Assembly (NCBI GenBank): GCA_017305055.1
Contig: JAFKMZ010000008.1
Location: 111,990-175,989, forward strand
Reading direction: 5' to 3'
DNA from: Lysobacterales bacterium
GTDB taxonomy: Bacteria; Pseudomonadota; Gammaproteobacteria; Xanthomonadales; Rhodanobacteraceae
DNA length: 64,000 bases
The stretch's first letter is position 1. Each line of letters starts with the position of its first letter. A program made the translations under genes and the position numbers. The notes under the pieces are model-generated. The model had not been told where the DNA came from. It searched no databases and was given only the letters and a program-made list of their open reading frames with translations. Shown piece by piece: positions 37,337 through 63,875 of this stretch.

Positions 37337-37593
37337 GCGCACCACCGAAAAAGCTGCGGCTCGGGCCGCTGCCCGACACACAGACCGTCAAGCTGGCCTT
37401 TGCGTGTCCGGCCCGGCTCAAGGCCGACCTGGACCGCTACGCGGCGCTGCACGCACAGACCTACGGTGAGGTAGTGGATGCCGTGACGCTGATACCGCTC
37501 ATGCTGGAAGCATTCATGGCAGCGGATCGGGGATTCAAACGGTCGGGCGTATCGTCGAGTCGTCCTAGAAACGAGAAAGCCGCCCCTGTATGA
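37333..37593 (+). CDS. DUF2274 domain protein (terminal gene of Trb-type ICEs)
   Basis: KKLRLGPLPDTQTVKLAFACPARLKADLDRYAALHAQTYGE...LIPLMLEAFMAADRGF. The stop codon sits in the loop of the hairpin at 37579-37604. Confidence 0.8.
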   Translation: MSAPPKKLRLGPLPDTQTVKLAFACPARLKADLDRYAALHAQTYGEVVDAVTLIPLMLEAFMAADRGFKRSGVSSSRPRNEKAAPV

Positions 37594-37604
37594 ACAGGGG
37601 CGGC
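37579..37604 (-). terminator. Rho-independent terminator of the tRNA-Leu gene (11-bp stem, 4-nt loop)
   Basis: GCCGCCCCTGT-ATGA-ACAGGGGCGGC. On the minus strand the hairpin starts 7 nt after the tRNA CCA end and is followed by UUUCUCGUUUCU. Confidence 0.6.
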
Positions 37605-37611
37605 TCCGAAT

Positions 37612-37933
37612 TGGTGCCCGAGGTCGGACTCGAACCGACAAGCCTTGCGGCGGGGGATTTTCTTCCCACTTCGGCTTTCGCCGCCGACGTTTCCAAAGAA
37701 ACGGCGTTCGTGGTCTGGAGCACGCCTTCACCATAGCCTTGCGGCCGTAGGTGCCCGCCGTCTGCTCTCTACACCTTCCCTCGAACCTTTCGGTCCGAGG
37801 GCTTGGCTCGGCGTTAGCTCGGACTCTCGTCCAGGGCCTTCACCGAGTTTGACGGGCTTCACCTCGGGGGTTTCCCCCAGAGGGCTCAAATTTGGTCTGA
37901 GTCCCCTGCGTCTACCAATTCCACCACTCGGGC
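37612..37933 (-). tRNA. tRNA-Leu(CAA) gene interrupted by a group I intron (exons 37899-37933 and 37612-37661)
   Basis: The joined exons are GCCCGAG UG GUGG AAUUGGUAGA CGC A GGGGA CUCAAAA UCCCC CGCCGCAAGGCUU GUCGG UUCGAGU CCGAC CUCGGGC A CCA. This is an 85-nt type II cloverleaf with a long variable arm and an encoded CCA. Confidence 0.85.
37662..37898 (-). ncRNA. Group I intron, IC3-like, 237 nt, no ORF
   Basis: It contains blocks shared with the Azoarcus tRNA-Ile and cyanobacterial tRNA-Leu(UAA) introns. These are the guide UUUGAGCCC, GUCAAACUCGG, CCGAGCCAAGCC, GGAAGGUGUAGAGAGCAGACGG, GCUAUGG, a GCGAAAGC tetraloop hairpin in a 3' extension, and a terminal G directly before the 3' exon AAAAUCCCC. 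Confidence 0.85.
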
Positions 37934-38122
37934 AGGACGCACATGATACTTCAACTACCTGCTACTACTGACTTGGAGTCAGCCTGCGCTGCACTGGCTC
38001 CCAGTTGGCTCCTAGCTCGAAAACTCGCATTCCCGATCAGGAGCCGCTTTTCCTCGTAAACTTTTGCCTGGCGCGGGCTGGCGGACGATGAACCCAACTT
38101 AACCATAGGTAGGAGTACCTAT

Positions 38123-38160
38123 TTTTGAGTCCGCCGCGTCTACCATTCCGCCACACCGGC
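38123..38160 (-). pseudogene. 5' fragment (38 nt) of a second, sequence-distinct tRNA-Leu(CAA)
   Basis: GCCGGUG UG GCGG AAUGGUAGA CGC G GCGGA CUCAAAA, then non-tRNA sequence (the hairpin ATAGGTA-CTCC-TACCTAT). I see no matching anticodon 3' strand, T-arm or acceptor 3' strand downstream. Confidence 0.7.
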
Positions 38161-38184
38161 ATTGAGGTGCGAATTATGCCGGGT

Positions 38185-38766
38185 TCACTGCACGCGGTCG
38201 AGTCCGAGCACGCGCATGTCGCGCGTGTAGCCGTGGCCGTCGGGCAGCGGCTGGAACACCGAGCAGCGCAGCATCGGGCCGGCATAGACATGCAGGCTGA
38301 CGGTGACCGCGTCGTCGCTTGGATTGCGGATGCTGTGGTATTCGTGCGGCGGGATCAGGCTGCCGGCGGAACCCGCTGCGGCGTGGATCGAGCCAATCGC
38401 GCTGAACTGCCAACGCTCGTCCTCGTGGCCCTGCAGGTCGTATTGCTGGATGTCGAGCGCGCCGTGCCATACGCCCTCGACGCACCACATGCCGTCGTGG
38501 TCATGGATCGGCGTGCCTTGGCCCGGCGCCCAGGTCATCGCCACGATGCAATAGCCGTGCTCCTCGCTGCGATACAGCTCGCGGCGCGCGTAATGTTCGG
38601 CGCAGGGGACGAACACACAATCGGGCAGCTGCACGTCGCCTGAGCTCATGAAGTGGCACAGGCTCGCGCGCAGGCTGCTGGTGAGCGCCGCGGCATCGGG
38701 CTGGCCGACGGCGAAGTCGATGGCGTCGATGAGTTGCCGGCTACCGGGAAATGGCAGGTTGAGCAC
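38185..38766 (-). CDS. Cysteine dioxygenase-like cupin protein
   Basis: Cupin metal motif GTPIHDHDGMWCVEGVWHG...PPHEYHSI, about 190 aa. Confidence 0.65.
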   Translation of the reverse strand: MLNLPFPGSRQLIDAIDFAVGQPDAAALTSSLRASLCHFMSSGDVQLPDCVFVPCAEHYARRELYRSEEHGYCIVAMTWAPGQGTPIHDHDGMWCVEGVWHGALDIQQYDLQGHEDERWQFSAIGSIHAAAGSAGSLIPPHEYHSIRNPSDDAVTVSLHVYAGPMLRCSVFQPLPDGHGYTRDMRVLGLDRVQ

Positions 38767-38811
38767 GGGGGTCTCCAGTCGTACAGGCTGCGTGATCGTA
38801 GCAGCGGGGGG

Positions 38812-61662: not shown

Positions 61663-61952
61663 ACGCGACGATCCAGGCGGCGCAAGCGCAGGCGACCACG
61701 GTGCATTGTGACGGCATGGCCATGGTGCCGGGCCCCCAGACTTCGATACCCGCATCGATGCCGCCGGCTGGCAATGGCCACGCCTGTTGTCCTGACGGCG
61801 GTTGCCATTGCGCATCTTCGTGCACTGGTATCGTCGGTGTGCCGTATCCCGGTCTGGAGTTGCCGCCGATACGCGGCACTGTGTTGTCACTGGCCTACTC
61901 CCAGCCGATGCGGGCACCTTCCGCACCCCCCTTGCGACCGCCGATCGCCTGA
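61533..61952 (+). CDS. copL: CopL-family Cys/His-rich copper-responsive regulatory protein
   Basis: Signal-like N-terminus, the cluster HACCPDGGCHCASSC, and a position immediately upstream of copAB, as in Xanthomonas. Confidence 0.7.
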   Translation: MRQPFHPRSRSFRAVFGVALLAWAMLASGALAGPRRMFDAMGVNATIQAAQAQATTVHCDGMAMVPGPQTSIPASMPPAGNGHACCPDGGCHCASSCTGIVGVPYPGLELPPIRGTVLSLAYSQPMRAPSAPPLRPPIA

Positions 61953-62075
61953 TTCCCGTCGCGGCGCGCAAAGTGCCGCGAAGCACCGTAACTTGATCCC
62001 TGTTTGCCGCGCACAGCGTGGCGGATGGGCGTCTGCTCGTAACCGGCGTGCCGCGCACGCCAGCGGGAATCCGAA

Positions 62076-63875
62076 ATGAAACAGAACCCTTTTCACACGG
62101 GGCTGACTGTCCCGATGCCTTCCCGTCGACGCTTCGTGCAGGGACTGGCGCTGGGCGGGACCGCCGCGATGCTCGGGGGCTTCCTTAAACCCGCGTGGGC
62201 ACTGCAAAGCCTGGACATGCCCAACAACGCACGCAACGCTGGCGGACCGGGCGTTGTGTCCGGAACACAGTTCGCACTGGAAGTTGCCGAGACGCCGGTG
62301 AACTTCACCGGCAAGGCGCGTTACGCGACGACGGTCAACGGTTTGTTGCCGGGGCCGCTGCTGCGGTGGCGGGAAGGTACCGCAGTCACGCTGCGGGTCA
62401 CCAATCGCCTGCGCGTGCCGACCTCGATCCATTGGCACGGCATCTTGTTGCCTTTCGACATGGATGGCGTGCCTGGCATCAGTTTTCCCGGCATCGCGCC
62501 GGGTGAAACTTTCGTCTATCACTTTCCTGTCAAGCAGTGTGGAACCTACTGGTACCACGCGCACTCCGGCTTTCAGGAACAGACCGGCCTCTATGGTGCG
62601 TTGGTGATCGATCCGGCCGGGCCTGATCGCATACAGGCCGACCGTGATTACGTGGTGATGCTCAACGACTGGACCGACGAGAACCCGATGACGGTTTTCG
62701 CGAACCTCAAGAGGATGGGTGACTACTACAACTACGGCGAGCCGACCGCACGTGATTTCATCGCGGACGTGAGGCGCGGGGGACTAAAGGCTGCGCTGGC
62801 CGAACGCAGGATGTGGAACGAGATGCGCATGAGCCCGCGCGACCTCGTTGACGTCACTGGCGCGACTTACACGTATCTGATGAATGGCACTACGCCCGCC
62901 GGCAACTGGACAGGGCTGTTCAAGCCTGGCGAGCGCGTGCGGCTGCGCTTCATCAACGGTTCCTCGAACAGCCATTTCGATGTGCGCATCCCGGGTTTGA
63001 AGTTGTCCGTGGTTGCGGCTGATGGCCAGGACGTTGTACCAGTGGCGGTGGATGAGTTCCGCATCGGCACGGCCGAGGTCTATGACGTGGTTGTCGAGCC
63101 GCAGGAGGATCGTGCCTACACGATTCTTGCGCAGTCGATGGGTCGCGACGGCTACGCCCGTGGCACGCTGGCGCCGCGCGCAGGTATGCAGGCCGAAGTG
63201 CCGCACCTCGATCCACTGCCCACGCTGTCGATGGTGGACATGATGGGCGCCATGGCGGCGGGCGGCGACATGGCGGCCATGCACGGCACGCATCATGGCT
63301 CGATGCCCGGCATGGCCACCGGCGGTGCCCTTGACCCCGCCGGCATGCAGACGGCACACCACGCACGCACCGAATACGACAACCCGAACGTCGACATGCA
63401 CGTAGACATGCCGCGCACCAACCTCGACGATCCCGGCATCGGTCTGCGCGACAACGGTCGCCGGGTGCTCACCTATGCCGACTTGCACACTGTCGGCGGG
63501 TCGTTGTATCCGCAACAGCCCGTGACCGATGAAATCGAATTGCACCTGACTGGCAATATGAACCGGTTTGTCTGGGGTTTCGACGGGCTCAAATTCTCAC
63601 AGGCGAAGCCGCTGCACTTCCCTTACGGCAAGCACCTGCGGCTGATCCTGTGCAACGACACCATGATGACGCACCCAATCCACCTGCACGGCATGTGGAG
63701 CGAACTGGAATCACCGGAGCAGACGTTCCAGGTGCGCAAACACACCATCAGCGTGCAACCCGCCCAGCGCGTCACGTATCGCGTGAAGGCCGACGCGCTG
63801 GGGCGCTGGGCCTACCACTGCCACCTGCTCTATCACATGGAAGCGGGCATGTTCCGCGAGGTGGTGGTGTCATGA
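62076..63875 (+). CDS. copA: Copper-resistance multicopper oxidase CopA
   Basis: Tat signal SRRRFVQGLALGG. Copper sites HWHG, HAHSG, HPIHLHG and HCHLLYHMEAGM. A Met/His-rich insert is present (MVDMMGAMAAGGDMAAMHGTHHGSMPGM). Confidence 0.9.
   Translation: MKQNPFHTGLTVPMPSRRRFVQGLALGGTAAMLGGFLKPAWALQSLDMPNNARNAGGPGVVSGTQFALEVAETPVNFTGKARYATTVNGLLPGPLLRWREGTAVTLRVTNRLRVPTSIHWHGILLPFDMDGVPGISFPGIAPGETFVYHFPVKQCGTYWYHAHSGFQEQTGLYGALVIDPAGPDRIQADRDYVVMLNDWTDENPMTVFANLKRMGDYYNYGEPTARDFIADVRRGGLKAALAERRMWNEMRMSPRDLVDVTGATYTYLMNGTTPAGNWTGLFKPGERVRLRFINGSSNSHFDVRIPGLKLSVVAADGQDVVPVAVDEFRIGTAEVYDVVVEPQEDRAYTILAQSMGRDGYARGTLAPRAGMQAEVPHLDPLPTLSMVDMMGAMAAGGDMAAMHGTHHGSMPGMATGGALDPAGMQTAHHARTEYDNPNVDMHVDMPRTNLDDPGIGLRDNGRRVLTYADLHTVGGSLYPQQPVTDEIELHLTGNMNRFVWGFDGLKFSQAKPLHFPYGKHLRLILCNDTMMTHPIHLHGMWSELESPEQTFQVRKHTISVQPAQRVTYRVKADALGRWAYHCHLLYHMEAGMFREVVVS

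Follow-up and report, generated by a model that had tools for sequence, protein, structure and literature searches.

Few features of group I introns are conserved as well as the U·G wobble pair of the 5' splice site, which has a central place in the models of cleavage-site choice. The locus described here raises the question how a group I intron fares when this position is occupied by a C-G pair. It is located in the window, by which we mean the whole stretch of 64 kb of DNA that was analysed. A preliminary description of this DNA had predicted such a pair in a tRNA-Leu(CAA) gene and had left three readings, i.e. an intron adapted to C-G, splicing that is inefficient or regulated, and a non-functional derivative of a UAA-type ancestor.

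Run with default settings, ARAGORN reported no tRNA in the whole 64-kb window, and no RNA family of Rfam reached the gathering score in it. Since intron-bearing genes of this kind are missed both by default tRNA finders and at the Rfam gathering score, the genomes which carry them seem to be without a tRNA-Leu(CAA). When introns were allowed, ARAGORN assigned positions 37933-37612 of the minus strand to a tRNA-Leu(caa) that is interrupted behind 'gactc' by an intron of 237 nt. ARAGORN draws the spliced tRNA as a cloverleaf of 85 nt; its variable arm is long, and A73 and the CCA are encoded. Its anticodon loop comprises 7 nt with U33 and A37, the anticodon is CAA as described before, and it has the features expected of a functional tRNA-Leu. 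A permissive Rfam search matched the group I intron family RF00028 at 37908-37745 (30.3 bits, E=1e-5; the gathering score is 50). In that alignment C 37899 is placed at the consensus splice-site U and faces the consensus G. The parts of the gene are as follows.

37899..37933, minus strand: 5' exon, tRNA nucleotides 1-34, with C34 at 37899 (ARAGORN -i)
37662..37898, minus strand: group I intron of IC3 type, 237 nt, AGACC...GGGAAG, terminal G at 37662 (RF00028, homologues, compensatory changes)
37896..37906, minus strand: 5' strand of P1, exon GGGGACUC plus intron AGA, with the predicted cut between 37899 and 37898
37881..37890, minus strand: internal guide sequence UUUGAGCCCU, with G 37887 facing C34
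37863..37882, minus strand: P2 hairpin with GAAA loop (compensatory changes)
37851..37857, minus strand: 5' strand of P3, GCCCGUC, partner 37762-37753 (100% canonical, invariant)
37807..37847, minus strand: P4-J4/5-P5/P5a-J5/4-P4'
37778..37801, minus strand: P6 hairpin
37764..37767, minus strand: 5' strand of P7, the guanosine-binding helix, GAGC, partner GCUC at 37721-37718 (invariant in the clade)
37729..37753, minus strand: P8 hairpin (compensatory change of C-G to U-A between strains)
37666..37713, minus strand: P9 region with a GAAA-capped hairpin
37612..37661, minus strand: 3' exon, nucleotides 35-76, comprising AAAA, anticodon stem, long variable arm, T arm, A73 and encoded CCA

Due to its predicted P3-P4-P6 and P7-P8 core and the P3/P7 pseudoknot the intron is assigned to the IC3 tRNA-type group I introns. 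A P1 helix of the 5' exon end and the internal guide is present, in which CUC|AGA is paired to UUUGAG. The 5' splice-site pair is indeed the Watson-Crick pair of C34 (37899) and G 37887, which takes the place that U34·G has in the introns of tRNA-Leu(UAA), and the U·G wobble, a near-universal hallmark of group I introns that stands outside the definition of their fold, is absent from this site. The pair lies within 37885-37905, where it had been placed, while the guide (37890-37881) extends a few bases past the left end of that interval. On the exon side U33 (37900) pairs with A 37886 and C32 (37901) with G 37885; with A31 bulged out, GGGG at 37906-37903 pairs with CCCU at 37884-37881. The intron contributes the pairs +1 A 37898-U 37888, +2 G 37897·U 37889 and +3 A 37896-U 37890. 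The C-G pair makes P1 approximately 2.2 kcal/mol more stable than a U·G pair would. J4/5 (AA, 37840-37839) and J5/4 (AA, 37815-37814) are the expected receptor for the splice-site pair, and the pair G 37838·U 37816, which flanks both joining segments, is typical of the intron clade of the window. The intron ends with G 37662, and the AAAA of the 3' exon starts at 37661.

Since both the intron and the 3' exon start with A, the position of the cut cannot be read from the mature sequence alone. One might therefore suspect that the true junction lies elsewhere and has a U·G pair, or that the precursor is edited from C34 to U34 ahead of splicing. However, exon and guide cannot be shifted into any register with a U·G pair, because U33 is opposite A and C32 opposite G. 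The junction proposed in the preliminary description had been called the only one that gives a 7-nt anticodon loop (CUC+AAAA). This holds if a terminal G is demanded, whereas the junction CU|...|GAAAA gives a loop of 7 nt as well. The latter would presuppose that the intron ends with A, that the splice-site pair is U-A and that a Leu body carries a Phe anticodon. The junction CUCA|...|AAA leads to the same mature RNA, but again the intron would end with A. Moreover, the homologues with U34 share the junction register after nucleotide 34. We know of no C-to-U editing of this kind in bacteria, and we regard both a shifted junction and an edited C34 as extremely improbable.

Relatives of the gene were collected in three ways. 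Plasmid records were compared with the window by sensitive DNA comparison. This revealed homologous introns in tRNA-Leu(UAA) genes of Mycetohabitans megaplasmids, of a Candidatus Vallotia plasmid and of approximately 1,250 enterobacterial resistance plasmids, with U34·G in all that were inspected. The plasmid pCTX-M3 (NC_004464.2, approximately 61829-62130; L003) contains such a gene, a tRNA-Leu(UAA) that is unannotated; its group I intron is homologous and its splice site is U·G. Intron-bearing tRNA-Leu(UAA) genes of the pCTX-M3 type are found near aac(3)-IId, and they occur on resistance plasmids of Escherichia, Klebsiella, Salmonella, Acinetobacter and others.

Species-representative genomes were scanned with a pattern of the intron core, derived from the plasmid homologues, which left P1 and the exons unconstrained and which gave at least 120 loci. 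They comprise at least 10 tRNA-Leu(CAA) genes with GACUC|AG...UUGAGCCC and at least 82 tRNA-Leu genes in which nucleotide 34 is U and the splice site U·G. The genomic carriers of the CAA genes among the matches listed are Bordetella tumbae, Achromobacter sp. F4_2707, five Steroidobacteraceae bins and three other proteobacterial bins. A clade-specific core pattern, derived from the positions that separate the ten CAA genes from all loci with U34 (U-type), was used for metagenomes, again with P1 unconstrained, and gave at least 120 loci; it fixes some core positions and is uninformative on those. Among the metagenomic matches listed ARAGORN called 108 genes, 102 of them tRNA-Leu(CAA) and five tRNA-Leu(UAA). 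Eleven of the remaining 12 loci among these matches end at a contig edge and one has a truncated exon 1. In the latter (L167) a C-type intron follows only the last nine or so nucleotides of exon 1 (GCGGACUC), which makes it either a pseudogene with a truncated exon or a copy of the intron that sits at a foreign site. The genomic and metagenomic CAA matches listed and the window gene together make up 100 distinct C-type sequences, and the counts given per 100 below refer to this set.

The core pattern of the genome scan also reaches introns of tRNA-Arg(CCU) genes (L011, L013, L023 and others). In Tsukamurella, a Gemmatimonadaceae bin, an Actinomycetota bin and Microbacterium (L046, L065, L104 and L119) the intron is followed by GUUAAUCC, and two further matches are from Acidobacteria (L015, L092). 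Related introns are present in apparent tRNA-Asn(GUU) and tRNA-Lys(CUU) genes, some of them in hosts outside the Proteobacteria, and ARAGORN often mislabels the anticodons of these genes. The gammaproteobacterial bin MFD10097.bin.1.40 has two different intron-bearing tRNA-Leu(UAA) genes on separate contigs (L040, L107). In viral contigs the pattern of exon plus guide gave one match, a chance match inside a coding region. Phage records were dismissed as intron homologues; they have only the 3' exon in common, in the form of att-like tRNA ends.

The C-G pair is no chance occurrence but a constant feature of the C-type genes. Comparison of the orthologous introns at the splice-site pair, which had been proposed as a check, revealed C34-G in 100 of 100 distinct sequences among the matches listed and the window, and the neighbouring pairs U33-A and C32-G are likewise found in 100 of 100. 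The pair of intron A +1 with U is present in 99 and the +2 G·U pair in 95 of the 100. P3 and P7 are fully paired and invariant throughout this set, while P4, P8, P9a and the anticodon stem of the exons covary and P5 is also paired. One pair of the anticodon stem occurs as C-G (61 sequences), G-C (22), U-A (11) and A-U (5). P7 covaries on a larger scale, as the more distant UAA-type relatives have GACU/AGUC. RNAalifold predicted 69 pairs for the 11 genomic C-type sequences, 20 of which show compensatory double changes. Every C-type gene with complete exons among the matches listed has the terminal G, although ARAGORN sets the junction from the tRNA alone. The 29 distinct mature CAA tRNAs among these matches are all good cloverleaves with A73 and CCA, and their acceptor, anticodon and T stems covary. 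Within the clade the p-distance is up to 0.31.

A second strain of the window's organism (L255) differs from window positions 37599-38800 at 13 of 1,202 positions, 12 of which are inside the 237-nt intron. These 12 differences are located mostly in loops or are compensatory, and none affects P1 or the exons. Such a concentration in the intron is more suggestive of an exchange between intron alleles than of point mutations that arose in situ.

These data bear on the proposal that the U34C change abolished splicing in a tRNA-Leu(UAA) and left a non-functional relic. The Tetrahymena ribozyme depends on U·G for its first step, the metagenomic locus L167 has a truncated exon 1, and the leader of the window gene holds a truncated tRNA half (see below), all of which would fit a relic. 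A decayed gene is nevertheless hard to reconcile with a C-G pair in 100 of 100 distinct sequences among the matches listed and the window, with a terminal G wherever the exons are complete, and with P3 and P7 helices that are intact and stems of both intron and tRNA that show compensatory changes at a divergence of up to 31%. Clean tRNA-Leu(CAA) genes account for 102 of the 108 ARAGORN-called metagenomic genes among the matches listed. The usual marks of pseudogenes, i.e. broken stems, lost invariant bases, a decayed core and a lack of conservation, are not seen in the genes of the window type. The combination of compensatory changes and invariant positions indicates that the structure is under selection. 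Conservation of the C-type genes could in principle result from recent spread rather than from selection, though the p-distance within the clade reaches 0.31. Judged by these sequences the window gene is unlikely to be a pseudogene, and we give the relic very little credit. The suggestion of a non-functional derivative is thus not borne out, as more than 100 genes have intact cloverleaves, the terminal G, invariant P3 and P7 helices and compensatory helix changes.

A UAA-type ancestry by way of U34C had been part of the same suggestion, and this part is supported by the comparison of the tRNAs. The CAA tRNA of locus L133 and the UAA tRNA of Cupriavidus nantongensis (L014) are identical at 80 of 85 positions, which is the same closeness as between two CAA members. 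Consistent differences between C-type and U-type genes are confined to nucleotide 34, one base of the D region, the pair 27-43 (G-C vs. A-U), intron position +2 and the G·U pair beside J4/5. The intron trees, which were calculated by neighbour-joining from approximately 230 columns, are less uniform. In a first tree the C-type introns formed one clade, sister to a U-type clade of Xanthomonadales and Burkholderiales. This monophyly was lost in a larger tree of 129 sequences, in which U-type sisters nest beside the subgroup of the window. The number of switches between U and C may be either one or two. Most likely the C-G pair goes back to a tRNA-Leu(UAA) with intron whose anticodon changed at position 34 from U to C; the splice-site pair would have become Watson-Crick because the guide G was unchanged when U34 turned into C34. 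A selective reason for this shift may be found in the codon usage. The host is GC-rich (65% G+C), and among the leucine codons of the window's genes UUG accounts for 11.6% and UUA for 0.4%, an approximately 28-fold preference. Such a GC-rich host uses UUG and almost never UUA.

The next question is whether the ribozyme is specifically adapted to C-G. Docking or catalysis would then be restored by two changes that are typical of the clade. In the receptor a G·U pair closes P5 beside the tandem A·A of J4/5 and J5/4 and replaces an A·C or C·C mismatch, and in P1 the intron starts with +1A/+2G, so that a G·U pair lies two pairs below the cut. G 37838·U 37816 has its counterpart in 11 of 11 genomic C34 introns and in 5 of 82 U34 introns among the matches listed, and +2 is G in 95 of the 100 C-type but in none of 23 sister U-type sequences among these matches. 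The +1A-U and +2G·U pairs are nearly invariant, and in Azoarcus an adenine of J5/4 touches the guide G. On the other hand, the G·U signature is also present in at least five genomic and at least five metagenomic U34 introns, the latter having been selected by the signature itself. It is therefore not tied to C34 and may predate it. In the metagenomic sequences it was moreover imposed by the search pattern. With one or two origins of the C-type introns, the correlations represent one or two events only. For these reasons we rate tolerance of the C-G pair above specific adaptation, to which we would give a minor chance. Somewhat speculative to the same degree is the idea that the clade cleaves without a wobble through the changed receptor (the extra G·U by J4/5) or a relocated P1 wobble (the +2 G·U pair) and that U34·G and C34-G were interchanged more than once. 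If wobble-free recognition were true, it would provide a natural system for what the 'universal' U·G pair really contributes.

A third reading assumes that splicing is slow, helper-dependent or conditional. The intron would then throttle a UUG-specific tRNA and would be regulatory, as is the case for other rare-leucine tRNAs. It is in line with this that C at -1 reduces the activity of all model ribozymes tested, and the P1 helix, stabilized by approximately 2.2 kcal/mol, could slow the exchange of exons. In some bacteria tRNA-Leu(CAA) is dispensable, since tRNA-Leu(UAA) can read UUG. A long conserved leader upstream of the gene would also suit a regulated gene. UUG is, however, a common leucine codon in the window, which argues for a well-supplied tRNA and against throttling. 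Neither an intron-encoded nor an adjacent conserved protein was seen, and the flanks vary between genomes. We consider regulated splicing rather unlikely, and a little less probable than adaptation.

The leader and further elements around the gene are listed here.

37934..38160, minus strand: conserved leader of approximately 225 nt, kept in relatives
38173..38201, minus strand: sigma-70-like promoter match TCGACC-17-CATAAT upstream of the leader, the sole one near the gene
37576..37607, minus strand: terminator-like hairpin after the tRNA

The leader starts with a second, truncated 5' half of a tRNA-Leu(CAA) (38160-38123, minus strand), which ends with CUCAAAA. It is followed by a hairpin AUAGG..CCUAU (38122-38105, minus strand) and by a guide-like segment (38097-38091, minus strand), which is complementary to GACUCA in relatives and would again give a C-G pair at a putative splice site. 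The remaining approximately 150 nt contain the repeat AGGAGCCAA/AGGAGCCAG and a covarying hairpin at 38002-37975. The leader recurs within the window's subgroup, at no fewer than 15 loci (L008, L034, L094, L125, L128, L131, L133, L144, L169, L178, L180, L182, L186, L227 and L237). In most relatives its tRNA half equals exon 1 exactly; in the window approximately eight positions differ. The leader, with its second copy of exon 1 and its guide-like hairpin, might serve as a decoy or as an alternative splice site. Two origins were considered and found little support. An island that inserted into the anticodon loop and displaced the tRNA half should have left a 3' half, and no matching one was found anywhere in the window. 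For a decayed intron copy the local alignment score of 33 lies within the range of shuffled sequences (25-28 ± 5), although short motifs and a P1-like hairpin recur.

Window positions 1-37593 belong to an integrative conjugative element of the Tn4371 type, whose boundary is 18 nt away from the tRNA 3' end. It encodes RepA, a DUF3363 relaxase, TraG, TrbE/L/G/I and DUF2274 as well as RND efflux and chromate-resistance cargo, and metagenome contigs of the same organism break exactly at the boundary of element and tRNA. In Achromobacter (L034) the orthologous tRNA is followed by a P4-type integrase and in L094 by an island with an AAA ATPase (AAA_15/AAA_21). The different islands after the orthologous tRNA-Leu(CAA) point to a hot spot of island insertion.

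Taken together, we consider it probable that the locus is a working tRNA-Leu(CAA) gene with a self-splicing IC3 intron of the Leu.3Cg type (see below) which goes back to a shift from U34 to C34. As the intron is inserted after anticodon nucleotide 34, the base in front of the cut is the anticodon's wobble base. A tRNA-Leu(UAA) with an intron would have undergone the U34 to C34 shift, possibly more than once, and with the guide G staying in place the U·G splice-site pair would have turned into C-G. The ribozyme would keep its normal core fold and dock P1 with the C-G pair. Guanosine would attack after C34, and by use of the terminal G the CUC end would be joined to AAAA. With an ordinary ribozyme core ordinary chemistry is expected, and it is the recognition of the site that is unusual. 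We infer that splicing occurs and is fast enough. The sequences are compatible with each of the three states of the C-G site, i.e. adapted, merely tolerated, or inefficient and regulated. An anticodon shift in a tRNA gene can thus drag an intron into an 'illegal' splice-site context. A large and diverse clade that keeps C-G offers a ready-made test whether the wobble is dispensable in small tRNA-type ribozymes or is compensated.

Among the known systems the classical tRNA-Leu(UAA) intron ('Leu.3Ug') of cyanobacteria, plastids and some proteobacteria has the same insertion site, P1 register and IC3 core. The proteobacterial members have up to approximately 85% of the intron positions and 80 of 85 tRNA positions in common with the C-type genes. 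They differ from the window's type by U34·G instead of C34-G, by the anticodon UAA instead of CAA, by A instead of G at +2 and by A-U instead of G-C at 27-43.

The intron of the Azoarcus tRNA-Ile(CAU), the structural model for IC3 introns, resembles the window intron in its small core and in the adenines of J4/5 and J5/4 which face the splice-site pair; it differs by its insertion after nucleotide 36 and by its U·G site. It also shares motifs such as AACGCCGAGCCAAGC, GAAGGUGUAGAGA and AGACGG with the window intron. In the structure of the Azoarcus ribozyme the guide G bonds with both of its amino protons to A87, an adenine of J5/4, so that a Watson-Crick C-G pair would disturb this contact. 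Of the substrate changes tested with this ribozyme CAU to CAC was the best tolerated, i.e. C at -1 impaired the reaction and the ribozyme was still active. The design rule for the Anabaena tRNA-Leu intron demands Y (U or C) at -1. For Tetrahymena, as far as the work is cited in Williams (2020 bioRxiv, doi 10.1101/2020.01.27.920355), the first step suffers strongly when U·G is replaced by C-G. Small ribozymes of the tRNA type seem less sensitive to C at -1 than the Tetrahymena model.

A natural C·G pair at the 5' splice site has reportedly been found in fungal mitochondrial group I introns as well. There, too, a constraint on the exon nucleotide is said to impose the C-G pair. These introns belong to other subgroups and reside in protein-coding genes of organelles, whereas the constraint in the window is the wobble base of a bacterial anticodon.

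The closest counterpart is the Leu.3Cg class, for which 72 cases with a Watson-Crick C(-1):G pair in P1, all from Proteobacteria, were counted (Williams 2020 bioRxiv, doi 10.1101/2020.01.27.920355); the preprint itself states that their splicing ability needs testing. No later mention of this class was found in the literature searched. The window locus agrees with it in the tRNA-Leu host, the insertion after position 3 of the anticodon loop, the C at -1, the Watson-Crick pair with the guide G and the terminal G, and no difference was found. The named relatives of the window gene (Bordetella, Achromobacter, Steroidobacteraceae) and the flanking conjugative element are of proteobacterial type. 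By these sequence characters the gene is a further member of the published class. The C-G site is a real and interesting exception that is already on record, which limits the newness of the basic observation. The clade structure, the covariation, the tRNA body shared with tRNA-Leu(UAA), the rationale from codon use and the conserved leader go beyond the preprint, which gives counts only.
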